Shown here: positions 7,852 through 62,406 of the stretch, piece after piece
Numbering within the stretch: the stretch's first letter is position 1
Layout: each line of letters starts with the position of its first letter
Source of the DNA: Leucoraja ocellata
Lineage: Eukaryota
Direction of reading: 5' to 3'
Length of the DNA stretch: 64,000 bases
NCBI GenBank assembly: GCA_036785375.1
Contig: JAWMAR010000203.1
Span: 3,410,001 to 3,474,000 of the forward strand
Position numbers and translations under genes: made by a program
Notes under the pieces: model-generated
Databases searched by the model: none
What the model was told of the DNA's origin: nothing
The model's input: the letters and a program-made list of their open reading frames with translations, nothing else

Positions 7852-8190
7852 ATGCATTCATCACTTGTGAACCAGCCACAGATGTAGAGATCGGCAAGGA
7901 TGTCACCTTCAAGTGTACGTTTAAGTGCGACAATCCATGTGTACCGAGGGTGAGGTGGGAGAAGGATCAAGATGCTGGAATCTTGTACGAGTACAAGGGA
8001 GATAAAAGCGATGTCAGCAAACAACATGCCAACTACTCGGGAAGAATTGAAGTCGACACATCCTCATTTAAAGAAGGAAAAGCATTTCTTACATTGAAGA
8101 ATGTCGAAATCTGGGATGAGGGAAAGTACATTGTCAGTATTAGCACTGACAATGGATATGGACCTGGATTTGTCCAGCTATCTGTTTGGG
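7852..8190 (+). CDS. Gene A exon: IgV domain of a B7/butyrophilin-family (B7-H4/VTCN1-like) protein
   Basis: Acceptor cttttctgtcttttgttcag, donor G|gtatgt, phase 1-1. Translation (D)AFITCEPATDVEIGKDVTFKCTFKCDNPCVPRVRWEKDQDAGILYEYKGDKSDVSKQHANYSGRIEVDTSSFKEGKAFLTLKNVEIWDEGKYIVSISTDNGYGPGFVQLSVW shows B7/BTN V hallmarks (Q..Y.GR, G.A.L.L.NV...D.G.Y). Confidence 0.9.
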
Positions 8191-8587
8191 GTATGTTTTC
8201 ATACTTGATAGGAGCAGAATTAGGCCATTCGGCCCATCGGTCATTCGGCCATCTCCTGCCTTCTCCCCCATACCCCCTTACTACCGTACTAATCGAGAAC
8301 CTGTCAATCTCCATTTTAAAAATACCCAATGACTTGGACTCCACAGCTGTCAGTGGCAGTGAATTCCACAGATTCACCACCCTCAGGCTGTAGAAATTCT
8401 TCCTCTTCTCCTTTCTAAAGGAACATTGTTTTATTCTGATGTTGTCCCAGGCTCACCCACTACTGGAAACCTCCTTGTCTTCTCTCTTATTCTGTTTACA
8501 GTGAGGGTCAAATGCACCTGGGTGTATTTATTTAATTGTTCAGTATTAGGGATTATTTTTAATTCTTAACGCAGCTTTTTTTACAGG

Positions 8588-11135
8588 AAGTCAAGTCAAG
8601 TTTATTTGTCACATACACATACGAGATGTGCAGTGAAATGAAAGTGGCAATGCTCGTGGACTTTTGTGCAAAAGACAAACAACAAAACAACCAACAAATT
8701 ATAAACACAATCATAACATACATATTCTTTTACATAATAAATATGGAAGGAAAAACGTTCAGTAGAGTTAGTCCCTGGTGAGATAGGCGTTTACAGTCCG
8801 AATTGCCTCTGGGAAGAAACTCCTTCTCAACCTCTCCGTTCTCACCGAATGGCAACGGAGGCGTTTGCCTGACCGTAGCTGCTGGAACAGTCCGTTGCAG
8901 GGGTGGAAAGGGTCTCCCATGATTTTTTTTGCTCTGGAGTTGCACCTCCTGTTGTATAGTTCCTGCAGGGGGGCGCATGAAGTTCCCATAGTGCGTTCAG
9001 CCGAACGCACTACTCTCTGCAGAGCCTTCTTGTCCTTGGCAGAGCAATTCCCAAACCAGATGGTAATGTTCCCGGACAAGATGCTTTCCACCGCCGCTGC
9101 GTAGAAGCACTGGAGGATCCTCGGAGACACTCTGAATTTCCTCAATTGCCTGAGGTGGTAAAGGCGCTGCCTTGCCTTACTCACGAGCACTGAGGCGTGT
9201 GATGCCCATGTCATATCCTCAGAGATGTGGACTCCCAGATATTTAAAACAGTTCACCCTATCCACAGGATCCCCATTTATACTCAATGGAGTGTACGTCC
9301 ATGGATGATGTGCCCTCCTAAAGTCCATGATCAGCTCCTTCGGTTTTTTTTTATGTTCAAGAGGAGGCTGTTATCCAGGCACCAGAGTGCTAGACCAGCC
9401 ACCTCCTCCCGGTAGGCCTTCTCGTCGTTGTCTGAGATCAGGCCCACCACCACAGTGTCATCAGCAAACTTAATTAATGAGTTGGAGCTGAACCTAGCCA
9501 CACAATCATGTGTGTACAGGGAGTACAATAGGGGGCTGAGGACGCAACCCTGAGGCGATCCTGTGCTCAGGGTGAGGGACTTTGATGTATTCCCTCCAAT
9601 CTTGATTACCTGAGGCCTGGCGGTGAGGAAGTCCAGGACCCAGGCACACAGGGGGGTGTTGAGCCCCAATTCCATTAGCTTCCCGGCCAGTCTGGTGGGG
9701 ACTATTGTGTTGAAGGCTGAACTGTAGTCTATAAACAGCATCCTCACGTAGCCCCCCTTCTGGCTGTCCAGATGGGAGAGAGCGGTGTGCAAGACCTGGG
9801 AGACCGCATCGTCCGTGGACCTGTTCAGACGGTATGCAAACTGCAACGGGTCCATGTTCCGAGGGAGGAAGGCGCAGATGTGATTCTTCACCAGCCTCTC
9901 AAAGCATTTCATGACTACTGAGGTAAGGGCCACCGGACGGTAGTCATCCAGACAGGCTGTGGAGGCATTTTTTGGTACCGGTACAATGATGGATTTTTTG
10001 AAGCAGGCAGGGACCACGGACTTGTCCAGGGAGAGGTTGAATAATGTAGTGAGCACCGGAGCTAGCTGCGTAGCACAGGACTTGAGTACTCGCCCCGAGG
10101 TGCCATCGGGGCCTGCAGCTTTTCTCGTGTTCACCCGTGTCAGAGCCCTCCTCACGTCGTGCTCGGACAGCGAGAATGTGTGCACATTTCTCCCTTCAGC
10201 TTCGGTAGCCAGCCCGCTGGCGGTATTGTCGATAGTCGGCAGACCTGGAGTGGTGTTGCCCCTCTCGAAACGAGCGTAGAAGGAGTTCAGGTCGTCAGCT
10301 AGGGAGGTGCCGGCACATGCGGATGAGGAAGGGGTGCTCCGGTAGTTGGTTACAATCCGTAGCCCCTGCCACAGGCTTCTGGTGTCCTGCTGCTCCATCT
10401 GTAACTCCATCTTGTCCCTGTACCTTCTCTTTGCGTCCTTCACCGCCCTTCGCAGTTGGTAGGACTCTGCCTTGTAGACGTCCATGTTTCCTGATGCCAG
10501 GCCCAAGTTGTAGGCAGCGGTGCGAGCATTCAGGGCCACACGAACAGATCTGTCTACCCAGGGTTTTTGGTTCGGGAAGGTGCTTACCCTTACCGCGGGG
10601 ATAATGTTGTCGGTTACTGTTGCGATGAAGTCCGTGACTGCTTCCGCGAAGTCACTGACGTCACTGGAACTTGCTTCGAACATATTCCAGTCGACATCAC
10701 TCAGTGCATCTTGCAGTATGGCCTCTGACTGGTCGGACCACCGCTTTACGTCCCTCGTCTCTACCGCTTCCCGAACTATCCTCTGTTTATACTCCGGCAA
10801 CAGGAAAATGGCAGCGTGGTCAGATTTTCCTAGGGGAGGGAGTGAAACGGCCTTGTAGCCTTTCCTGAACAGTGTGTAGCAGTGGTCCAAAGTTCTCTCC
10901 CCCCTGGTGGCACACGTGATGTGTTGGTAGAAGTTCGGCATGACCTTCTTGAGATTTGATTTATTACCATAGCCGCATCCGGGTACTTGTTTTGATGTCG
11001 ATATAGCACATCGTGTAGGGCCGATAGTGCCACGTCGCTGTCCGCCTGCGGTGGAATGTAGACAGCTGTGACGATCACTGAGCCGAACTCCCGGGGAAGG
11101 TAGAATGGGCGGCATGAGATTGCCAGATGCCGAAA
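8588..11135 (-). mobile_element. Rex1/Babar LINE, 5'-truncated, frameshifted EN-RT
   Basis: ORF 9331-11148 (YRPVALTSVVMKCFERL, FIDYSSAFNT, GSPQGCVLSP, KFADDT) and C-terminal ORF 8768-9328. EN remnant IVTAVYIPP. (CTTGA)n tail at ~8588-8600. Lies in the gene A V-C intron. Confidence 0.9.
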
Positions 11136-11274
11136 ATTCTGGTGTCATCTCCCTTCATCAAAATTCTCTTGTGAAGTTCCACCAGTTCAAATAAACTTCA
11201 TGCCTCAGTCCACGGCATCAAAGTTACAAAGAACAGGGATGTCTTTGGGGTGTCTAATTATACAACTATTAATG

Positions 11275-11720
11275 GCGGCATGGTGGCACAGCGGTAGAGT
11301 TGCTGTCTTACTGCACCAGAGACCAGAATTCGATCCTTACTATGGATACAGTCTGTATGGAGTATGTACGTTCTCCCCGTGACCACGTGGGGGCACCGGC
11401 TTCCTCCCACACAAAAGACATACAGGTCTTAAGAAAGGTCTTGACCCGAAACGTCACCCATTCCTTCTACAGAGATGCTGCCTGAGTTACTCCAGCATTT
11501 TATGTCTATCCTAGGTCGGTAGGTTAATTGGTATCGGTAAAAAATCTCAATTGTCCTGCACATCTTTGGAGTGTGGGAGGACACAGGAGCACCTGGAGAA
11601 AACCCACGTGGTCACGGGGAAAATGGACAAACTCCGTACAGACAGCACCCATAGTCAGGATGGAAGCCAGGTCTGTGGCGCTGTAAGGCAGCAACTCTAC
11701 CGCTGCGTCACCATGTCGCC
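11275..11720. mobile_element. Two tRNA-derived HE1/V-SINE-like fragments, tail-to-tail, with a Penelope repeat piece
   Basis: GGCGGCATGGTGGCACAGCGGTAGAGTTGCTG head with B-box-like TTCGATCC; inverted copy ~11560-11720. Confidence 0.7.
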
Positions 11721-11756
11721 ATTAATGGTTGCTATTTATGTTTCTTTTCTTGGCAG

Positions 11757-12020
11757 CTGCTGCTGATCCTATCAAAATTATCATGAATTCCGAAATGGAC
11801 ATGCTCTCTTGCCAGTCGTCAGGGTGGTATCCTGCCCCAACGGTGGAGTGGAGGGACAAATCGGGGAACGATTTAAACAAACACAGTGAAATAATCATGA
11901 AAGAACCCAATGGCCATTTCAACGTGACCCACAATCTGAAAGTATTTGACAAACAGAATCAGTACATCTGCTCAATGTGGCATAAGTGGATGAAAAAACA
12001 GACTCGAGTGGTTTTCTCGG
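11757..12020 (+). CDS. Gene A exon: B7/BTN-type IgC domain
   Basis: Acceptor tttcttttcttggcag, donor G|gtaagt, phase 1-1. (A)AADPIKIIMNSEMDMLSCQSSGWYPAPTVEWRDKSGNDLNKHSEIIMKEPNGHFNVTHNLKVFDKQNQYICSMWHKWMKKQTRVVFS contains the C.SSGWYP.P.V.W and Y.C...H motifs. Confidence 0.92.
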
Positions 12021-12281
12021 GTAAGTTTATTTTCTGAGATTATTAATCAAGTAAATTTAAATAAACTTATTAGAGATATTTTCATTCATAATCTGAGATC
12101 CATCAGTCGTTGTTTAAGAAAGAACTGCAGATGCTGGAAAAATCGAAGGTAGACAAAGATAGGCAGACATGGTTTGTCTATCCATCAGTCATTGACAAGT
12201 TTGTTGGTGAATTATTCCAGGATTTAGTCTCACCGCCCCACAAGATTTAGATTTAGGTTTATTATTGTCACGTGTAGTGTT

Positions 12282-13122
12282 GACACGGTGGCGCAGCAGT
12301 AGAGTTGCTGCCTCACAGCGCCAGAGACCCGGGTTCCATCCTGACTAGGGGGGTGTCTGTATGGAGTTTGTACATTCTCCCTGTGACCTCATAGGATTTC
12401 TCCGGGTGCTCCAGTGTACTCCCACTCTCCAAAGACTGGGTTTGTAGGTTAATTGGCTTCCAGAAATTGTAAATTATTCCTTGTGTTCAGTGGATCAATG
12501 GAACTTTATTTCTCTCATGTACTGAGGTACAGTGAAATTCATTTTTGTAGTTCAGTTCAGTACAAGTGTCACTATACAGAAACACTTAGATATATGTTAG
12601 CAGAGCATCACAGATACAAGTGTCTTACAGTAGTACTCAGAGTCAGTATACAGTCACCAGTTTTGGTGCCATTTTCGAGTGACAATTGCAAGTGCAGGGT
12701 TCTTGACCTGACCACGAAGGCCTGTTGTCCTGGTGGCATTGCAGGGTCAGCCTGGCCATGAGTGACCATGATGTCCTCCACCACTCTAGACGGTCCACGT
12801 GCTCGGCCTCTTGGAGCGGTGCCCAGTCCAGCCGAGGCCCAGGCTGTTGCAAGGCCACCAGCTGCCCACTCCCCCGTCAAGGCTGTACACTGCCTCCTGC
12901 AGCCGGTCTGCTTACTGGCCCTCTGTCCAACTCCACTCTGGGTGGGTGAGCCGGGCCGTACAGGCGGGTTCCGGTCTGCGGAGCAGGTCCTCAGTCCTCC
13001 CGCCGCGTGGCTAGCCGAATACTCCGCCATGTGCAGTGTGTAGGATAGTCCTAGTGTACGGGGTGATCGCTGGTCAGTGTGGTCCCGATGGGCCGAAGGA
13101 CCTGTTTCAGCACAGTGTCTCA
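12282..13122 (+). mobile_element. HE1/V-SINE-like element split by an unclassified ~0.55 kb insert
   Basis: SINE head at ~12282 and body to ~12490; SINE tail resumes ~13035-13122. Confidence 0.55.
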
Positions 13123-13822
13123 AGTATTGTAAAATAAAACTTATACTGTACGGATGGATTAACTAAGTTTGGCACAATGTTTCTGATTGTTGGTCATGAG
13201 AAACTTTGAAATTGTTAGCAGTGTGGAATGACTGATGCCTATCTTCTGGATTGCACTCATTAAGTAGTCTCCATAGCTCAGAATTCTCAGATAAAACGAT
13301 TGGGCGATTCTTCAGTAAATGTCTACTTTGGTGTCCCGTTACTTTGATGCTGTAAATAAGGAAAATCCGTAATTGTTAATAAACATAATCCTCATAAATA
13401 AAGATTAAACCCTAAATTATCTTCTTTTTTTCCCCGATATTCGATGCCCCCACCCCCCCGAAAACCACATGTCCTGATTGTTACTAGTGAAATTTCAAGT
13501 CAGCATATTTATTTAATGGGGGATCTATCTGAAATGAAAATACTTTTAAACGGTAGGTATTAATAATTAAAATATTTATCACCCATAAAAAAAATCCTCT
13601 CACCATTTCTTTTCAAAAATTTCTTGTCCCGATCTTCCGACCTCAAAAGACCACGGAATTGAAAAGTCCCCTACCTAGTGAATTTCTCCTGATTTGCGGG
13701 ACGAGAAACGTGAAAACTGTTTTTTGCTGCATAGCGGGTACGTACCTATATTCAGCACCATTCACGAACAGCGCTGAAGTCTTAGAAGAAAAAATAATCT
13801 TTCTTTTTTTATTTCTTCTGCA

Positions 13823-15620: not shown

Positions 15621-15776
15621 TTCTTTTTCCCAAATTGTGCCATGTGCCATTCAGGAAACGATATGGCCAGGCTTGGCTTTCCGGCAAGGCCATCCTGGGC
15701 TTAAGGCTTGGGCCACCATTCCCGTCACAGCCACATCCACAACTTAAACCCGATCTCCATCCAGCTCCAACCGGAT

Positions 15777-16080: not shown

Positions 16081-16320
16081 TCCTGGATCCTTAAGCTGTG
16101 ACTCATTGTCCTGGATACAAGGCCGTCGGTTCATCCCGTGACCTGATGTCCCTCTCCACGCCCGGCCCTCTTTAGCCCTTGTTCCCCGGTGGTGATGGGA
16201 GGGGGGGGGGGGGGGGGACAAGGGTTGAAGAGGTCCAGGCATGGAGAGGGACATTGGGTCACGGGAAGATGCAACGGCTTTGTGTCGGGCTGGAGATGGA
16301 GCTGGAGATCGGGGGTAAGT

Positions 16321-16648
16321 AGCCCCAACCCTAGCCCTAGCCCCAACACTAACCCTAACCCTAGCCCCAACCCTAGCCCCAGCCCCAACCCTAGCCCCAG
16401 CCCCAACCCTAGCCCCAACCCTAGCCCCAACCCTAGCCCCAGCCCCAACCCTAGCCCCAATCCCAACCCCAGCCCCAACCCTAGCCCCAGCCCCAATCCC
16501 AACCCTAGCCCCAGCCCCAATCCCAACCCTAGCCCCAGCCCCAATCCCAACCCTAGCCCCAGCCCCAACCCTAGCCCTAGCCCCAACCCTAGCCCCAATC
16601 CTAGCCCCAACCCTAGCCCCAGCCCTAATCCTAACCCGAGCCCTAACC
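16321..16648. repeat. Degenerate telomere-like hexamer array (AACCCT/AGCCCC/AATCCC)
   Basis: About 55 tandem hexamers related to (CCCTAA)n; source of the LG/PN/AR-rich spurious ORFs. Confidence 0.9.
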
Positions 16649-16879
16649 AAAGTCTAAAGTGTAAAATAATAGAACAATGACTATAATTATCAATTGTAAT
16701 TGATAAATGAACAGTATGCTTCTGCCTATTCATCTGAAGTTAATATTATTTTAGGGTAAGTTGGTGAAAAGTTGTGTGAAGGTTTTCCATTTTTGCTGAA
16801 AATCACCACTTTTTTCAGCAGTAAACTGTTACGAAAGTTTAAAATCAATGCGTTAGACGGAAAACATTTTTTGGTGGTT

Positions 16880-21399: not shown

Positions 21400-21449
21400 A
21401 TGGAAATCCACGCTTAATCCACGTGGATAGAAAAAAATCTTCAGATTAA
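21400..21449 (+). CDS. Gene A probable terminal coding exon (hydrophilic tail, stop)
   Basis: Strong acceptor ttttttccactttattttcag in unique DNA. Phase 1 gives (D)GNPRLIHVDRKKSSD*. AATAAA follows at 21638-21643. Confidence 0.6.
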
Positions 21450-29845: not shown

Positions 29846-32317
29846 TGTCAGTCACCGCCTCGCAGATTGGTTTCCTCTCCTGTCAGTTACGGCCGGGACG
29901 GCAAACCCCCTTCGTGCACGAGCGGTTTTATTCCCACGTCATCTACACTTCTTTAAAAAACTGTGAACTGGGCAAGAGTTGGATTATTGGACACGGTTCC
30001 ACAAATGTAAAAGTGCAGTTGCTGCGGTGCCTGGTGCTCAGCACGTCCTGGAACCATCCGTCCCTGCGCTTCACCCGGGGGAGGGTCAGGACTAGGGTCA
30101 CGGCTGCCCTCCTCAAAGATGGTGGTGCTGCTGGCCATTGGTTCGTGCGGACCCGGCGGACTGGACCTTGGAGAGAGGGGAGGAGGAAGAGGGAATGGAG
30201 GAGGGGGAAGAGAGGTGTAGAGAAAGGAGACGAGGGCCGTGGGGGAGGTCAGAGGGGATAGTTAGGGGCAGGGGCAGAAATCCCGGGGGGGGGGGGGGGT
30301 GGCAGGTGGGACACCTCTGTATTGAGTGATCCGGATTTTAAAATCTCCGCTTTCCGCGAAACAGTGGGGGTGGGACTGCTGATCGAGGGCGCCGATTGGA
30401 CGAGAGAGACGTCGGTCAGCAGGTAATGGCGGCGGGACATGATGATTCAGCGCGATGATTGGAGGAGGGAGGAGTGGGTGGGACTGAGGATAGAGTGTGA
30501 TGATTGGAGGAGGGAGGCGTGGCACAGACCTGCGCCTCATCCGCAGTTGGGATGATCCCGACCGGCTCTCCGGCGCTGTCCCGTCCCCACCCCCCCCCCC
30601 CCGAGTGCCGCCCCCCCCCCACGGGTGGCCAGAGACGTCGGAAGTCAGACGGAAGCTGTGCCCTCAGCCAGTGCAGAGAAGCAGCGCTAAACCCAGCTCA
30701 ATTTTGCCTGTCCTGCCAGGTTAACCTGCAGCCCTGCCTGGACTTGCGGGAAATATGGCGCAGGCTTACAGCCAGCGCGGAGAAGCAGCGCTGGTGTCCC
30801 GTCAGTCCAGGCAGGGCTGTAGGTTAACCCGGCGAGACAGGCAGAGTTGAGCTGCATTTAGCGCTGGATTGCGCCTCTGAAGCCTCGTGTGCGCGGTCCC
30901 CTCCATATTTTGATAACGATTTCCATGCCTGTAGGGGGGATTGGGGGATATGAGGGGTTAGGCGTTATGGAGGGCAGGAGGGAGTGGCAAAAGGTAGTGG
31001 AAATGAGAGGGTGGGATTGGGTAGGGGAGATTAGATTAGATTAGATTAGATTCGTTTATTGTCATTCAGACCTTTCGGTCTGAACGAAATTCTGTTTCCC
31101 TGCAGTCATACATATAATTAAAAAAATGACAAAAACACACAATCAACACAAATTTAACATCCACCACAGTGAGTTCACCAAACACCTCCTCACTGTGGTG
31201 GAAGGCAAAATCTTAAAGTCTCTGGCTCTTCCCTCTTTGTTCTCCCTCTGCGCCGAGGTGACGGTTCAAACTCCGCGGGTGGTCGCTGCCTCGCCACAGC
31301 TCAGAGGCCGAGTCAGGTCTCCGCCGCCGCCGCCCCCCGCCACAGCCTCGGGGCCGAGCCAGGTCTCGCCGCTGCCGCCGCCACCACAGCTCCGGTGCCG
31401 AGCTAGGTCGCCGCTGCTGCCGCCTCGGTGCCAAGCCAGGTCTCCGCCGCCACAGCTCCGGTGCCGAGCCAGGTCTCCGCTGCCGCCGCCGCCGCCGCCG
31501 CCACAGCCTCGGTGCCGAGCCAGGTCTCCGCCGCTGCTGCTGCTGCCGCCGCCGCCGCCACAGCCTCGGTGCCGGGTCAGGTCTCCGCCGCTGCCGCCGC
31601 CACAGCCTCGGTGCCGGGTCAGGTCTCTGCCGCTGCCGCCGCCGCCGCCGCCACAGCCTCGGTGCCGAGCCAGGTCTCCGCCGCTGCTGCTGCTGCCGCC
31701 GCCGCCGCCACAGCCTCGGTGCCGGGTCAGGTCTCCGCCGCTGCCGCCGCCACAGCCTCGGTGCCGGGTCAGGTCTCCGCCGCCGCCGCCACAGCCTCGG
31801 TGCCGGGCCAGGTCTCCGCGCTGTCGCTGCTGCCGCCGCCGCTGCAGCTTCGGTGCCGAGTCCGGTCTCCGCCGCCGCTGCCGCTGCTACAGCTCCATCG
31901 CTGCCAGCTCCGCCATTAGGCCTCGACGGAGACGGGGGATACGACCGAAGAAAAGTCGCATCCCCCGAAGGAAGAGGCCAAAGCATTGTTTCTCCCACCC
32001 CACCCACACACACACACACAACTTAATAAAACAAAATTAACTAAAACATGACAAAGAACAAAACGAAAGAAAAAAAACCAGACAGACTGCAGGTGGGCCG
32101 CAGCTGTTAAGCCAGCGCCACCATCTTGGAATTGGGAGGAGGAGAGGGGAAAGATGAGGGAGGGTGAAGAGGAGTGCTGGGGGATAAGGGGAAATGAGCC
32201 GTGCCTGCGAAGTTGGGGGCTATGGGTGAGTGGTGGAATGTTGCGTTGGGGAATAGGTTGCGTTGGCAGATCAGGCCTCCCATGTGACAGGGACCCAATG
32301 GGTTTCACTTGGTCTAG
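29846..32317 (+). mobile_element. GC-rich non-autonomous element with Helitron-like 3' end
   Basis: Ends GACCCAATGGGTTTCACTTGGT-CTAG|T (short hairpin then CTAG). Internal 63-bp inverted repeat 30682-30866. The 5' end is not resolved. Confidence 0.45.
31030..32127 (-). mobile_element. Non-autonomous retroelement with (TCTAA)n tail and internal GCC-rich minisatellite
   Basis: (TTAGA)n then TTTATTGTCATTCAGACCTTTCGGTCTGAA, shared with 51025-51780. Tandem GCC-rich units ~31300-31900. Confidence 0.6.
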
Positions 32318-34137
32318 TCTCTCTAAAGTTCAGGCCCACGAGTCCTGGTAACATCCTCCTAAATATTTGCATTCTTTCCAGCTTAATGGTATCCCTTCTG
32401 CAAGATGATCAAAACTGAGTAGACAGTAGTAGTCTTACATAACTGAGTAGATTCATGTAGTGGAGTTTTGAGATACAGCGTGGAAACTAAGCCCCTATCC
32501 CACTTAGGAGACCTAAGCAGCAACCTCTGGTGACCTTGCCCGCCACCCAAAAAAAATCTAGGTCGAGGTGACCTGCAACCTCCTACCACCTTCCACGCAT
32601 ATGTTGAAAAACTTCCTAGACTATGAAGAAAACCGGCTTCGACTAGACCTGCGAAAAAAATTTTTTATAACGGCAACCTATTTTTAGTCGAGGCCGGTTT
32701 TAAACATGATGTAAACATAGCAGCAACCTAGATGAAGCCTCAACCACTTAAGAAACACTTTTTCTCACAGAGAGTGTTGTGTCTGTGGAATTATCTGCCT
32801 CGGAGGGCGGTGGAGGCAGGGTGTCTGGATGCTTTCAAGAGAGAGCTAGATAGGGCTCTTAAAAATAGTGGAGTCAGGGGATATGGGGAGAAGGCAGAAA
32901 CGGGATACTGATTGGGGACGATCAGCCATGATCACATTGAATGGCGGTGCTGGCTCGAAGGGCCAAATAGCCTACTCCTGCACCTATTTGTCTATTGACC
33001 ATTAGGGAGAGTGACCAAAACGTCCGGTGACCTCATGGAAACCTTGGGTGGCAGGCAAGGTCACCAGAGGTTGCTGTTTAGGTCTCCTAAGTGGGACAGG
33101 AGCTTGGTGCTTCTGCCTCATCGACTCGCTACACACTACGGATAATTTAGCTTATTGTCACATGTCCCGAGTTATAGTGAAAAGCTTTTGTTGTGTGCTA
33201 ACCAGTCAGTGGAAAGACTACACATGATTACAATCGAGATATTCACATTGTATAGTTACATGATGAAGGGAATAACGTTTAGTACAAGATAAAGCCAGTA
33301 AAGTTCGATCAAACATAGGCTGAGGGCCAGTAAAGTCCAATCAAACCCACATGTCATTGGGATGTGGAAGGAAACAGGAGCACACGTGAGAAAACCCATG
33401 TGGTCACAGGGAGAACGCACCAACTCCACACCGTCAGCTCCCGAAGTCAGGATCAAACTCGAGTCTCTGTCGCTGTGAGGGAGCAGCTATACCAGCTGAG
33501 CCATTGTGCTGAACTCGATGGGCCGAATGGCCTGTTTGCATGCTGTATTTCCAAACTAAGCTCATGTTCTAAGTGAATTCCACGGGTTGCAGCCTGCAGG
33601 ACCCGGTCGCAGTGTAGATTGAACAGTAAAGGGCATGTCCCACTTGGCCGGTCATTTGCGCCTCATTTACACATCATAAGTAAAATAGGGTGACGCGTTG
33701 TGACGCACGGGTAGCGTGTGGGTAGCAGGGGATGGGCACATGGAGGAATGTGGAGTTGTGCGCAGTATCGTGCGGCCCTCCAGGATTTCGTGCTGCACAA
33801 AACGCTGACACATTTGGTACGCACACTGACGCATTGGCGTCGCACACTCCTTCCCGACGTCTCACGTGTATTGCGTGGTGACGCATGGCTATGTCAGTCG
33901 GCCACAATGAGAAAATAATTATGCCATAAGCATCAATGCTTTCAGAGTAACACCTTAATAAGTATTTTTGAAACATCCTTAGTTCAGGATGTGTCAAAAG
34001 TTAACATCCAGGTAAGGATTGCAGATTTTATATCCTAAAAGAACACTAGTAACTAAATACCACCAACAATTTTACTAACACCATTTTAAAGAAAAATTGC
34101 AAACTAATTCTGAAGCTGAGTTCAAACCCTCAAACTG

Positions 34138-34140
<3 letters not shown>
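32282..34140 (+). repeat. Copy 1 of a ~1.9-kb duplication (copy 2 at 35038-36904)
   Basis: Same order of MITE, CR1, SINE and unique pieces on both sides of the gap, with scattered substitutions and indels. Confidence 0.9.
32490..33105. mobile_element. Harbinger-like MITE with ~60-bp TIR and nested CR1 fragment
   Basis: CCCACTTAGGAGACCTAAGCAGCAACCTCTGGTGACCTTGCC at the left end, inverted copy ending ~33105. Duplicate at ~35245-35869. Confidence 0.65.
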
Positions 34141-34142
<2 letters not shown>

Positions 34143-34215
<73 letters not shown>

Positions 34216-34804
34216 GCCATCCGACCGACTGCCGTCCGGAGCCCTTCCTGCCTTTCAATTCGTGCCCGATACTCGCAGATGTCCAATCGGAATGGCCGAT
34301 GCTCGCAGATGTCCAATCGGAATGGATTCATTTGCATGTACAGCTGCCGGCTGCATTTCTTCCTTTGATTCATTGCCACGCCCAATCCAGACGCTCAATC
34401 TCCGAGATCTTTTCCATTTCGGTAGAGATTTCGCTTTTCTTTCTAAGCATCTGCTCCTCATTACATTTCGTCGTGTTGAAGTGCACGTTTTTAATCAAAT
34501 CCTTCTCCCCACCCCCAAGTATTTCAAAAGAAACTGGCTTCTCCATTTACATGCCAGCTTCCAACACACTTCGAAACAAAGTTGCAAGACAGGAACACTG
34601 AACTTTTCACTGCTGCAGCAGGCAGGGTAGGTGCCATTGGATTTTTTTTTTTTAATCCACTGCTGAGGGAGGCAGGGCAGTGCTGGAATCTTACTTTTGG
34701 GAACGGCTTCAGTTCCATTGGAGGAGACGGGTGCATGGTGGAATATTGGATTGGGGGATCACACCATTGGGGGAGCAGACCCAACGGGTCTGCACTTGGT
34801 CTAG
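34143..34804 (+). mobile_element. Non-autonomous Helitron-like element with 5' (TCTA)n
   Basis: Starts A|TCTATCTAT; hairpin GCAGACCC-AAC-GGGTCTGC at 34775-34793, then CTAG|T. Absent at the equivalent site of duplicate copy 2 (~36904). Confidence 0.7.
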
Positions 34805-34837
34805 TATATTACTAAAAGTCTGTTCTTGACCGGTTTT

Positions 34838-35037
34838 NNNNNNNNNNNNNNNNNNNNNNNNNNNNNNNNNNNNNNNNNNNNNNNNNNNNNNNNNNNNNNN
34901 NNNNNNNNNNNNNNNNNNNNNNNNNNNNNNNNNNNNNNNNNNNNNNNNNNNNNNNNNNNNNNNNNNNNNNNNNNNNNNNNNNNNNNNNNNNNNNNNNNNN
35001 NNNNNNNNNNNNNNNNNNNNNNNNNNNNNNNNNNNNN
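34838..35037. other. Assembly gap (200 N)
   Basis: Run of N. Confidence 1.
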
Positions 35038-36370
35038 ATGTGATAGGGACCCAATGGGTTTCACTTGGTCTCGTCTCTAAAATTCAGGCCCACGAGTCCT
35101 GGCAACAGCCTCCTAAATATTTGCATTCTTTCCAGCTTAATGCTATCCCTTCTGCAAGATGATCAAAACTGAGTAGACAGTAGTAGTCTTTACATAACTG
35201 AGTAGATCCATAGTAGTGGAGTTTCGAGATACAGCGTGGAAACTAAGCCCCTGTCCCATTTAGGAGAACTAAGCAGCAACCTCTGGTGACCTTGCCCGCC
35301 ACCCAAAAAAAAATCTAGGTCGAGGTGAGCTGCAACCTCCTACCACCTCCCACGCATATGTTGAAAAACTTCCTCGACTATGAAGAAAACCGGCTTCGAC
35401 TAGACATGCGACAAAAAAATTATCGATTTTTATAACGGCAACCTATTTTTAGTCGAGGCCGGTTTTAAACATGATGTAAACATAGCAGCAACCTAGATGA
35501 AGCCTCGACCACTTAAGAAACACATTTTCTCACAGAGAGTGTTGTGTCTGTGGAATTCTCTGTCTCGGAGGGCGGTGGAGGCCGGTTCTCTGGATGCTTT
35601 CAAGAGCGAGCTAGATAGGGCTCTTAAAAATAGCGGTGTCAGGGGATATGGGGACAAGGCAGGAACGGGGTACTGATTGGGGACGATCAGCCATGATCAC
35701 ATTGAATGGCGGTGCTGGCTCGAAGGGCCAAATAGCCTACTCCTGCACCTATTGTCTATTGACCATTAGGGAGAGTGACCAAAACATCCGGTGACCTCAT
35801 GGAAACCTCTGGTGGCGGGCAAGGTCACTAGAGGTTGCTGTTTAGGTCTCCTAAGTGGGACAGGAGCTTGGTGCTTCGACTTGCTACACACTACGGATAA
35901 TTTAGTTTAGCTTATTGTCATATGTCCCGAGTTATAGTGAAAAGCTTTTGTTGTGTGCTAACCAGTCAGTGGAAAGACTACACATGATTACAATCGAGAT
36001 ATTTACATTGTACAGTTACATGATGAAGGGAATAACGTTTAGTACAAGATAAAGCCAGTAAAGTCCGATCAAAGATAGGCTGAGGGCCAGTAAAGTCCAA
36101 TCAAACCCACATGTCATTGGGATGTGGAAGGAAACAGGAACACACGTGAGAAAACCCATACTGTCACAGGGAGAACGTACCAACTCCACACAGTCAGCTC
36201 CCGAGGTCAGGATCAAACTCTAGTCTCTGTCGCTGTGAGGGAGCAGCTATACCAGCTGAGCCATTGTGCTGAACTCGATGGGCCGAATGGCCTGTTTGCA
36301 TGCTGATGTTCTAAGTGAATTCCATGGGTTGCAACCTGCAGGACCCGGTCGCAGTGTAGATTGAACAGTA

Positions 36371-37352
36371 AAGGGCATGTCCCACTTGGCCGTCATTTGC
36401 GCCTCATTTACACGTCATATGTAAAATAGGGTGACGCGTTGTGACGCATGGGTAGCGTGTGGGTAGCGGGGGATGGGCACATGGAGAGGCATGGAGGAAT
36501 GTGGAGTTGTGCGCGGTATCGTGCGGCCCTCCAGGATTTCGTGCTGCACAAAATGCTGACACGTTTGGTACGCACACTGACGCATTGGCGTCGCACACTC
36601 CTTCCTGACGATTCGCGTGTATTGCGTGGTGACGCATGGCTATGTCAGTCGGCCACAATGAGAAAATAATTATGCCATAAGCATCAATGCTTTCAGAGTA
36701 ACACCTTAATAAGTATTTTTGAAATATCCTTAGTTCAGGATGTTTCAAAAGTTAACATCCAGGTAAGGATTGCAGAGTTTATATCCTAAAAGAACACTAG
36801 TAACTAAATTAGTTTTTTTTTTTAAATAACCACCAACAATTTTACTAACACCATTTTAAAGAAAAAACTAATTCTGAAGCTGAGTTCAAACCCTCAAACT
36901 GCTATAATGGAATACAATTTTGTGTTTGTTGGGAGTATTTCAGAAAGTTTAAAAGTAAATTAATTTTTCCAGCAAACAATGATTTTATCAATGTTTAAGA
37001 AGGAACTGCAGATGCTGGAGAATCGAAGGTACACAAAAAAGCTGGAGAAACTCAGCGGGTGCAGCAGCATCTATGGAGCGAAGGAAATAGGCAACTTTTC
37101 GGGCCGAAACGTTGCCCATTTCCTTCGCTCCATAGATGCTGCTGCACCCGCTGAGTTTCTCCAGCTTTTTTGTGTACCTATGATTTTATCAATGTTTCAC
37201 TTAACAAATGATGTCAATACGATGACTAATTCTACTTGCAGAGCAGATAAAATATTTGAAGATGCATAATGACGGGTGATGACGCGCGCGACCGTCGCAC
37301 ATCAGTCACTACTGGCCTGTCGCATAAATGACGGCCAAGTGGGACAGGCCCT
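36371..37352. mobile_element. PIF/Harbinger-like MITE with nested Penelope hairpin insert
   Basis: AAGGGCATGTCCCACTTGGCCGTCATTT ... AAATGACGGCCAAGTGGGACAGGCCCTT, with TAA-like flanks. Confidence 0.75.
36997..37179. mobile_element. Penelope terminal repeat in inverted (hairpin) arrangement
   Basis: 18-bp TSD ATGATTTTATCAATGTTT (36979-36996, 37180-37197); near-perfect ~74-bp arms across 37027-37179. Confidence 0.8.
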
Positions 37353-40861: not shown

Positions 40862-40910
40862 ATGTCATCGTTTGCAAAATTCATCTCCACACTCTGCCTC
40901 TTTCTCCCAG
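40862..40910 (+). CDS. Gene B exon 1: signal peptide
   Basis: aaaATG; MSSFAKFISTLCLFLP(G); perfect donor CAG|gtaagt in phase 1. The leader is completed by GSAVG in exon 2. Confidence 0.85.
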
Positions 40911-41697: not shown

Positions 41698-42027
41698 GGT
41701 CCGCTGTCGGTGTGAGGGTGAACCAGTCTCCTGCTGCTCTGACACTTCTCCGAGGACAGACAGCTACGTTCACCTGCTCCCTGCTACCTGGAGAGGGGGA
41801 GATAGTTTTAATGAGGGAATTCTGGTTTCGGACGAAAGACAACCCGGAGCTCTGGGACAACAAGACCGAGAGTTTTCTGAAGACAGGCGACCGACTGTTC
41901 GTGTCCCTGGGCTCGCTGGTCATTCGGGAGGTGACTGTGCACGATGCAGACACTTACCATTGTGTGGTACTGATACATGATATCTGGAAAAAGTTTACAG
42001 GAAACGGAACCACATTACATATCCAAG
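41698..42027 (+). CDS. Gene B exon 2: germline-joined VJ-type IgV domain (NKp30/antigen-receptor-like)
   Basis: Phase 1-1. (G)SAVGVRVNQSPAALTLLRGQTATFTCSLLPGEGEIVLMREFWFRTKDNPELWDNKTESFLKTGDRLFVSLGSLVIREVTVHDADTYHCVVLIHDIWKKFTGNGTTLHIQ has QSP, B-strand Cys, WFR, DADTYHC and J-like GNGTTLHI, then AAG|gtaatt. Confidence 0.93.
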
Positions 42028-44799: not shown

Positions 44800-45099
44800 C
44801 GAAGCCTGACATCTCCCTGACCCTGGATCCCGGGATAGAAGGCGCAGAGACGCGGAGCCTGACTTGTGTGGCCGCCGGATTCTTCCCGAGGGAGCTGAAC
44901 ATGTCCTGGGCTGTCGTGGGCCAGTTGTCCTATGAAACAGAAGCGGGGCCGCTGAGGGAGAATGAGGATGGAAGCTTCAACGTGAGCTCCCGGCTGCGGC
45001 TCACCGGCCCTCGGCTAGAGGCGGGCATGGTCGTCACCTGCCTGGTTCAGCACCTCACGGGGACGGGCTCAGTGAGCGAACGTTTCCCTCCCATCCCAA
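44800..45099 (+). CDS. Gene B exon 3: C1-set Ig domain
   Basis: Acceptor ttttcctactttacgcag, donor CAA|gtaagt, phase 1-1. (A)KPDISLTLDPGIEGAETRSLTCVAAGFFPRELNMSWAVVGQLSYETEAGPLRENEDGSFNVSSRLRLTGPRLEAGMVVTCLVQHLTGTGSVSERFPPIP shows C1 hallmarks C.A.GFFP, N.DGSF...S.L and C.V.H. Confidence 0.93.
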
Positions 45100-54230: not shown

Positions 54231-54332
54231 GATCCTCCAAGTATTATTTCATTCGACTGAGTCTGATCCTAATAGTACCAATATGGGTCTTGATTGTGTA
54301 TCATTATCACAATAAATTGAAGAAAGGAAAAG
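54231..54332 (+). CDS. Gene B transmembrane exon with charged Arg
   Basis: Acceptor tttcaattgtgattttcaag, donor AAG|gtattg, phase 1-1. (R)SSKYYFIRLSLILIVPIWVLIVYHYHNKLKKGK is a hydrophobic span followed by a basic stop-transfer cluster. Confidence 0.8.
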
Positions 54333-54954: not shown

Positions 54955-55022
54955 AATCATCTGTCCATGATGCAACTGTTGATATTCAAAGCATGAGAAA
55001 CCGAAATAACTCAGTAAATGAG
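54955..55022 (+). CDS. Gene B cytoplasmic exon
   Basis: Acceptor atatttttatag, strong donor GAG|gtgagt, phase 1-0; (E)SSVHDATVDIQSMRNRNNSVNE. Confidence 0.75.
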
Positions 55023-55099
55023 GTGAGTAATTTAGTTTGATATTTACCCTTATGTTGCATGCACGATGTTCTAATGTACACTGCGGTATTGTCAGCTTA

Positions 55100-56015: not shown

Positions 56016-56286
56016 CTATAACACAAGACATTCTGCGGCACGGTGGTGCAGTGGGAGTGTTGCTGTCTCATAGCTGAGTCGCACGTTACGAATTAGCACA
56101 AGAGGTACCCCGAGTTAAAACTCGTGGTAATAACGTACGATTAACGTACCAAATTCGTAGACGTAACTTAGAGACTCGTGGCGCTAACGGCAGGTACTCG
56201 AGAAACTTGTCAACTCTTGCAAAAAGTCAAACATGTTTAAAATTTTCCACGAGTCAATTTTACCCTTGTGGTTAGGAATTGAAACA

Positions 56287-57175
56287 ACGTACGACATACG
56301 CTCATCCAATTTAAAACATTACATAGATTATATTATTCAAAAACTAAATTAAATAAAATCTTCCCTAATGTTTCACCAATCTGTGATAAATGCCTGTGTC
56401 AAGAAGCTACCATAGCGCACTCTTTTGTTTTTTGTACAAAAATCCAAAAATTCTGGTATGAAATATTTGATATTTTTTCAAAATTAGTCAAAATAAAACT
56501 GGTACCAAAACCAGAATGGATTATCTTTGGAATATCGGAAGGTAACCCTGAACTAAACGTGCTTCAGAAGAATGTATTTAATTACGGGCTAATAATGGGA
56601 AAAAAGCTTATACTTAAATTCTGGAAAAATGCGCCCATACCAACAATAAAAATGTGGATATCAAATATGTTTGAAACATTACATCTGGAAGAGATGAAAT
56701 TCCTCTTAGCAGGTAAAGCAGACCAATTCCAAAAGACGTGGTCTATGTTTCTGGCATCTCTATTACAAGTATGAGGTGCAATAGTAATTTAAATAAATAA
56801 ATAAATGGTATCAGGACCTGGTAACGGGAGGTAAAACAACAAAAACAGACTTGGTTGGTAGTCCCCTTTCTGCGGAGTTTAATGTTATAATAGAGCGATT
56901 GTTCCTATTTTCTTTTTCTTTCTTTTCTAGGGTCTATTTTCTCACTTTACTTCCTTCTCTAACTTCTTTTCTAAGGGCTTTCTTTTCCCAACACTCTTGC
57001 ACTTCACGACTCTTGCGCACTTTCTTTATTTGCCTTACTTCTATCTTTTTCTTAAAGCTCAAAAAAAATGAAGCGGTACAAAAAATGTATTAAGATATAT
57101 GTGTTGTGTAGTATTGTAATTTACCGTACTTCTAATAAAAATAAAATAAAATAAAAAAATTAATTAAAAAAAAAA
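56287..57175 (+). mobile_element. L1-clade 3' fragment with poly(A)
   Basis: CDKC knuckle, KKLILKFWK similarity to 48271-50524 and A-rich tail. 11-bp TSD GAATTGAAACA (56276-86, 57176-86). Confidence 0.85.
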
Positions 57176-57317
57176 GAATTGAAACATTTTAACTTGTAAG
57201 AACGTAGTGGCCCGTGCGTTTACCTTAGTGTATCGTGAGTCTACCGTGGGAACTCTTTAACTCAGCGGGCAGGCAGCAGCAGATTGTCGCTCCCTTCAGT
57301 TTCCCAGCGACAATCAC

Positions 57318-58501
57318 CTGCCATAACGCGAGAGAGATCATGCACTGTTGTAGGTCTCCTTTGCACGTCGGTGTTTCTGTCTTTCTCCACTCATTGTTGA
57401 CCCTATCTGTCACCACCCCCACCTACACCCCTCTGCTTCCCGGCCATGTGTGTGACCCCTTCCCTCCCCTCTCCAGCTCCCCGCCCATTACACCAGCGTG
57501 GGGGCTTTGCACTGTCTTCACGGCGGCGATGCCAGCGGGTTAGTGCCAATCGCCCCGGGGCAGTCGCTCCCTTCAGTTTCCCAGGGGGTCGAGATAGGAC
57601 TGGAGTTGGGAGGGAAAGGTGGGGGGGTGGGGGGGTTAGGTGAGCAGGAGAGTGGAGTTGTTTGCAGTTGCAGAGGAAGGGGGCAAGGGCGGTACAGTTC
57701 CCAGTCTCTGCTCCTGCCCAGGGGGGTGGCCGGAGACGTCAGGACCAACGAGACACCGACCCCCAGGCCCACCAGGCCCACTGCAAGCACGGAGAACCCA
57801 GAGACCCACAGCCAACAGCAACTCCAGCCCAGTCCCGCTCCAACTCCAGAGGAACCCGCTCCCCGTAGGGTCAGAAGCTGATGGTGTGCAAGGTACGTCT
57901 TGTTCTTGGGATGGCGGATGAGGGGGCGCAGCTCGGGCTATGGGCGAACTGCCACTTGTCGCCGTAGCAGCCCATCGGGAGCGAGGCTGGGCTGGAGTTG
58001 CTGTTGGCTATGGGTCTCTGGGTTCTCCGTGCTTGCAGTGGGCCTGGTGGGCCTGGGGGTCGGTGTCCCGTTGGCCCTGACGTCTCAGGCCACCACCCTG
58101 GGTAGAAGCTGAGACGGAACTGTACCGCCCTTGCCCCCTCCCTCTGCAACTGCAAACAACCCCACTCTCCTGGCCACCTAACCCCCCCCCCCCCCCCTCA
58201 CCTTTTCCTCCCAACTCCAGTCCCGTCCCGACCCCCTGGGAAACTGAAGGGAGCGACTGCCCCGGGGCGACTGGCACTGACCTGCTGGCATCGCCGACGT
58301 GAAGACAGTGCAAAGCCCCCTCGCTGGTGCAATGGGCGGGGAGCTGGAGAGGGGAGGGAAGGGTCACACACATGGCCGGGAAGCAAAGGGGTGTAGGTGG
58401 GGGTGGTGACAGATAGGGCCAACAATGAGTGGAGAAAGACAGAAACACCGACGTGCAAAGGAGACCTACAACAGTGCATGATCTCTCTCGTGTTATGGCA
58501 G
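57318..58501. repeat. Long inverted repeat (foldback) element
   Basis: Arms ~57318-57832 and ~57985-58501 are reverse complements; sequence shared with 4584-5310. Confidence 0.85.
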
Positions 58502-61500
58502 CTGTTCCTGAAGCTAAAGCCTTGGGATCGTTGCCCTTCGTGTTGGCGTGGAGGGGGAGGGGGAGAGGGTATTGTGCTGTTTGATCGCCCCCTGCTATCC
58601 CAGGGACAGGGAGACACAGCGGCTTTTGAGACTGGTGGGCAATCACGTCTAAAGTGTGTGCCCATACAGTCAGTACACCTCTCCTACACTTGTCTCCACC
58701 TCTCCTACACCTGCCTCCACCACTTCCACTGGAAGCTCATTCCACACCGCTACCACTCTCTGAGTAAAGAAGTTCCCCCTCATGTTACCCCTAAACCTCT
58801 GTCCCTTAATTCGTGGGTTTTCTCCGGGTGCTCCCGTTTCCTCTCATTCTTCAAATTGGCTTCTGTAAAAACTATCACTAGTGTGTAGGATAGTGCTAGT
58901 GCAGGGGTTAATCGCTGTTCGGCACGGACTCGGTGGGCCGAAGGGCCTGTTTCCGCACTGTTTCTCTAAAGTCTAGTGCATCTGCAGTTCCTTGTGTCAG
59001 CAAAACCGAATTGTCGCTGTCCTTTTTCAATCGAGAGAATTTTTCAATGCATTTAACTTGTTTGCCGTTTCCTTCCATCAGCTGGAATTATACTGCCAAC
59101 AAAGTGAGATCCATATTCCAAAACACACTTCCTCTTCAAGGAGGCCTTGTGGTCAACTGCATACCAGTCATTGGACATTGCTCGTGCAATGAGTTTCGTT
59201 GTTAATAACCAGTTGAAGAAGTGATGTTGCTACTAATATGCGTTGGATTCCATTCTCTTCAACTAAATCTACTATGCGTAAAATGACCTCAAGTGCCTGG
59301 TTTACTCATTATAGTGAATGCAGGGTCTTTTACCCAGGATAGGGAAATCTGGCTGCATTATTCAAGCACTTTGGGGTTTTTTCCAAGCCACCATCTGCAG
59401 TTCCTTGCGTATTTATTAAAGAAGTTCGGTTCTGTTACTTTTTTGAGTAAGAAAGAACTTCAGATGCTGGTAAAAATCAAAGGTTTTGATCAGTCTGAAG
59501 AAGGATCTCGACCCCATTCCTTCTCTCCAGAGATGCTGCCTCACCGGCTGAGTTACTCCTGCATTTTGTGTCTATCTTCTGTTACTTTTTTATTCTTCTA
59601 CTCTGTGAAGACTTTAAGCTCGGAGTATAATTCCAGGGTCTCATTGTCCTCAATGTTATCTCTCACTTCTTCAAGTGTATATCCTAGCGTTGATGAAATG
59701 ACATATCTTGACCAAGTCTGATTAGACTTTAGAGATACAGTGTGGAAACAGGACATTTGGCCCACCGAGTCCGCACCGACCAGCAATCACCTCTTTCACT
59801 AGCGCGATCCTACACACTAGGGACATTTTAGAAATTTACCAAAGCCAATTAACCTACAAACCTGTATGTCTTTGGAGTGTGGGAGGAAACTGGAGAATCT
59901 GGAGATCCCACGCGATCAAGGGGAGAACATATAAACTTTGTACAGACAGCACCTGTAGTCGGGATTAAAACCAGGTCTCTGCCGCTGTGAGGCAGCAACT
60001 CTACCGCTGCGCCAATGTGCCCCCTAATCATGCAGAGTTTTGCACATGACATTAGTTGCACTCCTCAGGCTGACTTTCACCTCCGTATCATTTTAGACAC
60101 ACAAAACCTGATAGCGCGCGACAAACAAAACAGCTGTTAATCTTGTCCTTTTAGAGTTGGTCAGATTATAGCAGGCACAGATATTCCCTACACACTGGGG
60201 GCAATTTACAGAAGACCACAAACCCGCACGTCTTTGTGACATGGGAGGAAATTAGAGCATGGATGAATTAATTAACTCTGTCCGATATCTTTCCCTGGAC
60301 ACCCCGTACTTAATGTGCAGCAGCTGAAAGTGATGGGTTTTCTCCTTAAACAGCTCAGTGAGTGGTTGCATGAGTTTTTGCAGTTGGAGGTCACTTCAGT
60401 AAAATATGAATTGCCAGCGCAAAGTTCTCTGATTCTAGCAATATTCCACCGTCATATCACACTGTCCCCTGCCAACAACAATCCCATCAATACCAACCTG
60501 CCTGAGGTCATTTGTTGCCGGCCCTGATTTGTCCCAGTCTTTGCTTACTTTCAGCCCCCCCCCCCCCCCAGTCTGAAGAAGAGTCCCAATCTGAAACGTC
60601 ACCTGTCCACCACATAGACGTTGTCTGTCTCGTTGAGTTTGTGTCTATCTGATTCTAGCAAGCTTTGTTGTTGGGAAAACTGAATGCAATGGACTGGCCA
60701 TTGTTAAGATCAGAAAATGACCCAAAGACTCAACGGTCAGGCAGTATCTGTGCTGAATATGGATAGATAAGTTTCCTCGACGGTGAAACTGATGAGAAGG
60801 TTGGTTGACCCTGTTAAGGGACAAGAGTGTTATCATTTGTTGTCATATACACTGACAACAGAACAATAACATTCTTATTTGCAGCAGCATAACAAGCCTG
60901 TAAACACAAGGCATACAAAGAATATATAGCAAACAAAAATGCAATCCATTGCAAAACCCCACAAAGTGTGTAGTGCAACTAAAGACAGTTTAGTTGATGT
61001 TGTGCAGAGTTCATGAGCCTGATGGTTGGTGGAAATAAGCTGTTCCTGAACCTGGACATTGCTGTTCACACATTCCTGTACCTTCTTCCTGATAGCAGGA
61101 ATGAAATGAAAGCATGGCCAGAGTGCTGTGGGTCTCTGATGTTATTGGTTGACTTTTTGAGGCAGCGCCTCCTGCAGATCCCTTCGATGTTGGGACGGTC
61201 TCTTCCTGCGATGGACTAGGCAGTGCCCACCTCTCTTTGTAACCTGCTTCATTCCTGGGTGATGTTGACAATGATATCAGTGAAACAGATATTGCCCACA
61301 AGTGTCACATGCCCACCGATCACTGACTAGTCCATGGACACACACATCCACACTTTAGCTTTTGCCCATTTGGTGTTTACTAATCAAATTCGTTACTGAT
61401 TTCACATGACTTTTCAATATAAATCAGGAACAGAGCCTCATTATAATTCATAAATTATAAATTATAAATCAGGAACAGAATACCTCATTAGATTCAGCTA

Positions 61501-61509
61501 AAAATAAAA

Positions 61510-62310
61510 TGACCATAAGATCATCAGACATAGTAGCAGAATTAGGTCATTCAGTCCATCGAGTCTGCTCCAACATTCACTCATGGCTGATCTAATTTTC
61601 CCTCTCAACCAATACTCCTGCCTTCTCACCGTAATCTTTGACACCCGTACTAATCAAGAATCTATCATTCTCCGCTTTAAAATGATCCAATGTCTTGGCC
61701 TCTACCACTGACTGCGCTAATGAATTCCACAGATTCACCACCATCTGGCTAAATAAATCCTCTCATCTCCGTTCTATTGTTATCCAAAATGTTCTAAAGT
61801 TCTAAAATTCCTCCGCTCCTCCAATTCTAAAATGAAGAAAATATCTTTCTAACCATAAGTTGGAATGTCTACAGAGACGATTTACGATGATGTTGACAGG
61901 ACTTGAGGGAGAGGTTGAGCAGGCTTGGACTCCCTGGAGCACAGGAGGATAAGGGGCGATCTTATGGAGGTGTATAAAATCATAATGGGAATAAGTGGGT
62001 GAATGCACGGAGTTTTTATAGCCAAAGGGAATTGAGAAATAGAAGGCATATGTTTAATGTGAGAAGGAAAAACCTGAGGGGCAACTTTATCATTCAGGGT
62101 ATATGTGGGTATATGGAACGAGCCGCCGGAGGACGTGGTTGGGGCAGGGACTACAACACCATTTAAAAGATATTTGGACAGGTACATGGACACAAAAGGT
62201 TTAGAGGGACTAGTGCCAACCGCGGGTAAATGGGACTATCTTAGATGGGGCATCTTGGTCGGCGTAGACGAGTTGGGCCGATGGGTCTGTTTCCGTGCTC
62301 TATAACTATG
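61510..62310. mobile_element. CR1 3' fragments in opposite orientations
   Basis: CR1 3' UTR and WNE.PE.VV.A motifs. Confidence 0.7.
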
Positions 62311-62370
62311 ATATCAACTCTGTAACACTAATATTTGCAAGTGGTTCTTATTGTTATTTTTGTGTTGCAG

Positions 62371-62406
62371 GATAATGTTTCAATAAACTATGAAAATCTG
62401 CATTAG
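62371..62406 (+). CDS. Gene B terminal coding exon with ITIM
   Basis: Strong acceptor ttattgttatttttgtgttgcag. Phase 0 gives DNVSINYENLH*; INYENL fits (I/V/L/S)xYxx(L/V). Confidence 0.75.
   Translation, partial: DNVSINYENLH

Follow-up and report, generated by a model that had tools for sequence, protein, structure and literature searches.

The 64,000-nucleotide stretch of the Leucoraja ocellata genome analysed here (C203:3410001-3474000, where C203 stands for contig JAWMAR010000203.1; hereafter the window) contains two immunoglobulin-type genes on the plus strand, namely a B7-type gene that lacks a membrane anchor and, downstream of it, a receptor gene with an unsplit VJ and a C1 domain. The assembly comprises 3.44 Gb and is not chromosome-level; on C203 about 1.35 Mb between 3.01 and 4.40 Mb were examined, all but 6 kb. 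An initial annotation had named a B7-type V-C gene and a VJ-C1 receptor, on the same strand and about 19 kb apart, as the only host genes recognised in the 64 kb. Both genes are intact and the limits given for the pair hold: the V exon of the B7 gene begins at position 7852 and the receptor stop codon finishes at position 62406. The B7 stop (21449) and the receptor ATG (40862) are separated by 19.4 kb, and neither the non-repetitive segments examined nor a splice-site scan revealed a third host gene in the window. All modelled introns of the two genes have AG/GT ends. A single fused V-C-V-C1 gene was ruled out, since a separate leader opens the receptor gene and the B7 gene closes with a spliced terminal exon of its own.

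The leader exon of the B7-type gene lies at C203:3394021, 16 kb upstream and beyond the window edge. It is followed by a V exon of phase 1-1 (7852..8190, +; Pfam V-set), a C exon encoding a BTN/B7-type IgC domain (11757..12020, +; Pfam C2-set_3, E=9e-16; intact in 5/5 copies) and a terminal exon for a short hydrophilic tail (21400..21449, +), whose frame is preserved across 3-nt indels in paralogues and which matches the ends of database proteins. One exon each for an IgV and a B7/BTN-type IgC domain is the layout of the B7 family. All 31 elasmobranch homologues consist of leader, V, C and short hydrophilic tail, are 226-248 aa long and end shortly past the C domain, and a hydrophobic segment after the leader was found in 0/31 (highest 19-residue hydropathy 1.27). 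These homologues stem from 16 species plus five contig-derived proteins and include isoforms and paralogues, so that they are not independent; most are predicted models, which leaves room for a rare anchored isoform. A frameshifted transmembrane (TM) segment in the tail was ruled out, as every copy and every homologue has its early stop in one and the same frame. The butyrophilins (BTN/BTNL) were likewise rejected as a family assignment, since they carry a TM segment and a B30.2 tail and the proteins found here end soon after the C domain.

Transcript evidence comes from reads mapped to B7 paralogue B. Intron-free single contigs over the V, C and tail exons were obtained in two of the four runs (X7 and X8), V and C exons were joined in X9 and the C-to-tail joint was present in X4, which brings the runs with a spliced C-to-tail joint on this paralogue to three of four. 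Because spliced single contigs cover the V, C and tail exons, the anchor-less form is transcribed in a related organism, and the earlier suggestion of a possibly soluble B7 protein gains support. DL or EL forms the C-terminal end of 26/31 homologues, while in the copy in the window the usual xxDL end is short of its last Leu. RTDL is described as a retrieval signal in MANF (PMC9408947); the xxDL end of the B7 proteins resembles it and may have the same role here. Such a protein would either be released by secretion or be kept back in the endoplasmic reticulum (ER) through its KDEL-like end.

As to family identity, B7-H4 is the best PDB match of the V domain alone (4gos, E=1.8e-10). A profile search with V and C together returned BTNL8 at the top, and BTNL8, B7-H3 and BTNs outranked B7-H4, whose PDB entry covers the V domain only; butyrophilin-named clusters ranked first in an Atlas search. 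Most RefSeq names of the homologues are VTCN1 or VTCN1-like and some are butyrophilin-like, and the nearest species-named V-domain homologues come from skates (83-94% identity). WARS2 exons lie at C203:3.20-3.22 Mb, 30 kb from the first B7 copy, and about 0.9 Mb beyond them, at 2.25-2.42 Mb, lies a GH47 class I mannosidase (a MAN1A gene, paralogue not determined). Human VTCN1 has MAN1A2 and WARS2 as neighbours, and since WARS2 and MAN1A flank the B7 cluster as well, orthology with B7-H4 is favoured. V domain, database names and flanks all point to B7-H4 (VTCN1) and not to B7-H6, which was absent among the 60 best PDB rows for V and the 50 V+C profile matches listed. The skate gene differs from B7-H4 in lacking the C-terminal anchor, as do all its homologues, in its conserved xxDL/EL end, in the presence of several copies per genome and in the F-strand Cys, which is mostly missing in batoid B7. 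Sharks have this Cys (window 8110-8145), whereas among batoids it was seen in Narcine only, and batoid V domains have extra cysteines close to the domain start.

The receptor gene starts with a leader exon (40862..40910, +), which aligns to homologue leaders and runs from ATG to a GT donor in 6/6 copies. The VJ exon (41698..42027, +) encodes an unsplit V domain with a J-like GxGT strand, as seen by Pfam (V-set), by an AlphaFold model (mean predicted local distance difference test score, pLDDT, 84) and by fold searches, and the C1 exon (44800..45099, +; Pfam C1-set, E=7e-13) is intact in 5/6 copies and frameshifted in the copy on C1820. The TM exon (54231..54332, +) aligns to homologue TM segments and encodes an Arg near the outer end (CGA). 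A first cytoplasmic exon (54955..55022, +) was placed by exon modelling and homologue alignment, and the last exon (62371..62406, +) contains a new YENL motif and ends in a TAG at 62404-62406 that replaces the tyrosine of the first immunoreceptor tyrosine-based inhibitory motif (ITIM). This stop is derived and premature: tblastn with catshark, sawfish and stingray tails recovered the untranslated remnant of the ancestral tail directly downstream (62407..62830, +), with the second ITIM, TEYAVL, followed by about 220 unrelated bases and then the ancestral end. A further open stretch of 36 codons with three tyrosines (59611-59721) is kept in 6/6 copies; it was omitted from the model as it has no counterpart in homologue proteins and possibly arose by chance.

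A word-based search with the receptor V domain gave no match; a full hidden Markov model search gave 61, among them four outstanding single-domain ones from sawfish, stingray, catshark and electric ray, three of which are named SIRP-beta1-like or SIRP-alpha-like and one uncharacterised. In PDB profile searches with V+C1, SIRP-alpha came first in one, and UrIg2 first and SIRP-alpha fifth in the other, with thousands of antibody chains among the matches. The V model matched VNAR, NKp30 and T-cell receptor (TCR) V domains about equally, with light-chain V tying as well, and SIRP did not appear in the rows listed by either fold search of V, which does not exclude it; a V-domain tree supported 0/13 branches. 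The initial annotation had called the receptor NKp30-like. This holds for the V fold (NKp30 E=1e-4; Foldseek ranks 6-9), where the likeness is real but not diagnostic because VNAR and TCR V match equally, and it does not hold for the rest of the molecule. NKp30 (NCR3) has a single VJ domain without C1, whereas a C1 exon is present in 6/6 skate copies and in four other elasmobranch species. The C1 domain and the ITIM tail of the ancestral form, together with the names given in databases, instead suggest a SIRP-like VJ-C1 family.

The likeness to SIRP-alpha/SIRP-beta1 extends to the VJ + C1 ectodomain, to an ITIM form accompanied by a charged-TM form, to RefSeq names and to the top PDB profile match. 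Differences are the single C1 in skate, a TM Arg instead of the DAP12-binding Lys of SIRP, and a position beside WARS2, which is not known as a SIRP locus; the name SIRP-like stands for likeness and not for orthology. In stingray (Hypanus, P0014/P0075) a tandem C1 duplication has produced a V-C1-C1-ITIM layout like that of SIRP-alpha. According to PMC10751288 and PMC12227049, an unsplit VJ exon followed by C1 is also found in the non-rearranging genes PRARP, Xenopus VJC1 and UrIg/UrIg2, of which UrIg2 tops one profile search. The skate gene shares this arrangement but is a membrane receptor with paired tails and not a multi-C antibody-like chain (PRARP was compared by description only).

It is highly improbable, in our judgement, that the pair represents skate NKp30 and B7-H6 or a butyrophilin and marks the major histocompatibility complex (MHC). 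The unsplit VJ domain, the TM Arg and a B7-type neighbour as candidate ligand are indeed shared with NKp30-B7-H6, NKp30 is among the V matches and BTNL8 tops the V+C search. However, the skate receptor has the additional C1 and the ancestral ITIM tail, its TM Arg is a recent skate change, SIRP-alpha and UrIg2 lead the V+C1 searches, and the candidate ligand is B7-H4-like and soluble, with B7-H6 missing from the matches listed. The proposed MHC location found no support either: 0/11 MHC class I matches fall on the 4.4 Mb C203 (class II/III markers were not searched for, in an assembly below chromosome level), the neighbours of the pair are WARS2 and the MAN1A gene, and to call the block MHC-paralogous would draw on human synteny only. 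Labels should accordingly change to B7-H4-like and SIRP-like VJ-C1, on a scaffold without MHC class I match. Another VJ family also scores better against NKp30 (E=1e-6 versus 1e-4 for the receptor in the window, nanobodies still outranking NKp30). It forms an expanded cluster of unsplit VJ exons, many of them broken, on C2394 (L200:7619-7948), C4569, C3751, C3415 and C742, and is a candidate skate NCR3-like family.

What the initial annotation missed is the paired nature of the receptor family. Searches with both the V and the TM exon found six copies in the assembly, with V identities of 87-94%. Four of them (window, C, D and E) carry the TM Arg, the YENL motif and the TAG at the first ITIM tyrosine; in the other two (u2 and B) the TM codon is CTA/Leu and the reading frame continues across LHYAPV and TEYAVL/TEYAIL. 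Where their TM could be aligned, the orthologues of catshark, sawfish, stingray and electric ray show a neutral TM in which the Arg is missing, and their long isoforms carry ITIMs; therefore the inhibitory form is considered ancestral and the Arg/stop form of the window derived. DNA around the TM and tail exons falls into two clades, with 6.7-7.8% difference between types and 1.0-2.7% within them, while for ectodomain DNA each of the 15 pairs shows 3.0-4.8% difference regardless of tail type. Near-identical ectodomains with split tails fit the exchange described for paired receptors in PMC5112662. Similar ectodomains, ITIM-bearing versus charged-TM ITIM-less forms and location in one cluster together define the receptors as a paired family, in which, judged from sequence, the Arg/stop and Leu/ITIM forms are likely activating and inhibitory, respectively. 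This paired receptor with a traceable origin of the activating-type form is the firmest new point of our study.

The two genes were duplicated together. Five B7 V exons are present in the assembly, four of which are followed by a receptor in the same orientation, with V-to-V distances of 34 kb (window), 21 kb (B), 41 kb (C) and 57 kb (D). The window itself contains a scaffold gap of 200 N (34838-35037) between two 92%-identical 1.9 kb copies (32282..36908, unstranded), probably a join of paralogous units, and because of these flanking copies the B7 and receptor copies of the window may not be true neighbours. Unit C also contains a gap. In units B (C203:3.94-4.01 Mb) and D (C1820) the B7-then-receptor order is gap-free. 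The fifth B7 copy, 99.5% identical to that of the window, is cut off by a gap, another gap occupies the place before receptor u2 at which a B7 gene would be expected, and receptor E begins 7 kb from a contig end. In the C1820 unit the receptor C1 is frameshifted and the B7 leader absent.

Some of these copies might be of little consequence: the Arg/stop copies could be decaying duplicates in a cluster that is largely an assembly duplication, with one B7 gene and one inhibitory receptor that matter. WARS2 and MAN1A each occur twice on C203 in mirror orientation and the cluster mirrors about 3.77 Mb, so that both haplotypes were probably scaffolded together; the copy number is inflated by this, and two or three units per haplotype are more likely than six. 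The near-identical fifth B7 copy and the damaged C1820 unit fit such a reading as well. Nonetheless we consider it improbable, since the tail types are about 7% apart and both occur on each mirror side, three of the four Arg copies have all exons intact, and the gain of Arg and of YENL goes together with the loss of the ITIMs.

Linkage in other species was read from accession numbers and chromosome sizes and not from coordinates, accession order being a proxy for position. Both genes are known in four other species. In stingray the receptor (XP_059824346/7) and B7 (XP_059824348/50) accessions are consecutive on the same 192.5 Mb chromosome; in sawfish (120.5 Mb) and catshark (211.7 Mb) both genes are on a chromosome of the same length with accessions 62-625 apart; and in the electric ray (Narcine) the receptor is on an unplaced contig. 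By this proxy the genes share a chromosome in three of four species and are consecutive in one, and no chimaera sequence was among the homologues returned. The earlier idea of a co-inherited pair is thus upheld by the copies and by linkage in three other species, consecutive accessions being seen only in stingray, and the linkage looks old. Sharks may have another neighbouring receptor: in Mustelus a single-V TM gene (P0071, XP_078088791) on the same chromosome as the B7 homologue, with an accession seven numbers away, is a further candidate.

A true linked module would equally result in long-standing linkage and in repeated joint duplication. In such a module the VJ-C1 receptors would be bound by the soluble B7-H4-like protein encoded next to them and the activating/inhibitory pair would read its level, B7 perhaps being released on ER stress when retrieval through the xxDL end lapses. 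Besides the gene order in the copies and the chromosomes of stingray, sawfish and catshark, the MANF precedent and the presence of NKp30 among the best fold matches of the receptor V fit this, mammalian B7 ligands bind V-type receptors, and run X4 contains the spliced B7 together with, by word matching and not by mapped reads, 0.26 of the receptor V words. Neighbouring candidate ligands and co-duplicated paired receptors are also features of NKR-P1/Clr, CD200/CD200R and CD2/CD58, but the skate candidate ligand has no membrane anchor. On the other side, genes 20-60 kb apart co-duplicate whatever their function, and linkage alone predicts the congruent B7 and receptor splits among four units (34:4:6 and 15:0:9 sites). 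Variable columns are not significantly clustered in B7 V (p=0.12) or B7 C (p=0.28), C varying as much as V, the comparison of copies gave no evidence for interface co-evolution between B7 and receptor, and the accession numbers of catshark and sawfish are a proxy for position and far from consecutive. A complex prediction of both V domains, run without alignments, scored 0.31 against a mark of 0.34 and speaks neither way. Binding of B7 and the VJ-C1 receptor is plausible, but the module is less likely than not. More doubtful still is the broader view of an ancient shark and ray module, in which a soluble, ER-retrieved and stress-released B7-H4 would stand beside its own SIRP/NKp30-like VJ-C1 receptor and which would have been multiplied and split in skates.

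We favour, with a probability of roughly 60%, a skate two-gene duplication unit consisting of an anchor-less B7-H4-like gene followed by a non-rearranging VJ-C1 receptor with likely activating and inhibitory copies. The gene models, the two tail types, the co-duplication and the old linkage are observed, whereas the signalling mechanism that follows is our inference. The ancestral form with neutral TM and ITIMs would recruit SHP-type phosphatases and restrain leukocytes. The derived form, present in the window, gained the TM Arg and YENL and lost both ITIMs through one Tyr-to-stop change. An Arg in the outer TM segment couples to FcR-gamma or CD3-zeta, and by this rule the Arg form would signal through an adaptor of that type. 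Both forms keep near-identical ectodomains, like paired receptors under pathogen pressure, and B7 is most likely a long-standing neighbour that was duplicated along with the receptor and not a demonstrated ligand.

Several points weigh against this interpretation. The TM-Arg/adaptor rule is brought in from general background, and signalling and binding alike are predictions from sequence. YENL could equally be read as an ITIM or as a YxN Grb2 site, so that the sign of the signal from the Arg form is uncertain and could be mixed or inhibitory; YxN is known in CD28H (PMC11599192). The three changes arose once, which makes Arg, stop and YENL in 4/4 copies a single event, and in one sawfish model (P0074) the TM differs. 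The pattern of variation cuts both ways. In favour of the interpretation, the ratio of nonsynonymous to synonymous differences per site (pN/pS) among copies is 0.90 for receptor V against 0.45 for C1, and of the 22 variable columns in receptor V, 12 fall at the C strand and the FG loop/G strand (p=0.02). Against it, the ratios, including 1.34 for B7 V and 1.07 for B7 C, come from small counts with none clearly above 1, and the clustering in C1 is equally strong (p=0.003). Finally, the receptor models derive from DNA and homologues and not from mapped reads, and a run search with the receptor V exon listed no RNA run on record as containing it.

Other features of the locus are of less consequence here. 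The window is rich in LINE- and SINE-type repeats (long and short interspersed nuclear elements) and contains a degenerate CCCCAA/CCCTAG-type array (16320-16648) and GC-rich minisatellites (6457-6700 and 31294-31884). Mirror-image duplications on C203 span 1.5-3.2 Mb and 3.4-4.2 Mb, and just past the cluster lies an ALCAM/CD166-like gene of the immunoglobulin superfamily with a split V exon (C203:4304240-4330674, -; weak PDB match, E=0.055). RBM39 precedes unit D alone. Its region (C1820:54574-88020) is 99.4% identical to C44:8350001-8382493 and continues via a young LINE into the leaderless B7 unit with the frameshifted receptor; since C44 has a gap where this young LINE lies, the junction could reflect either transposition or an assembly misjoin.

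The locus is undescribed in the literature searched, including the accessible parts of PMC10751288, PMC11599192, PMC12151841, PMC13262535, PMC9408947, PMC10046962, PMC12227049 and PMC5112662, although the supplements of PMC11599192 and PMC10751288 may list the genes, and Flajnik 2012, Ohta and Flajnik 2015 and Ohta 2019 may cover them. Our findings present a paired receptor whose origin in skate can be followed through three point changes, and a B7-H4-like protein that lacks an anchor throughout 16 named species of sharks and rays. They also bring a further non-rearranging VJ-C1 family into the debate on the precursors of antigen receptors. If B7 and receptor do not bind, the contribution to elasmobranch immunogenetics would be modest but real. 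For human B7-H4 the receptor still counts as unrecognised (PMC10046962), and the VJ-C1 receptor with its old linkage offers a definite candidate that can be tested in cartilaginous fish. Should the two indeed form a module, the orphan checkpoint ligand B7-H4 would gain an ancestral receptor, and B7 would act as a secreted danger signal.

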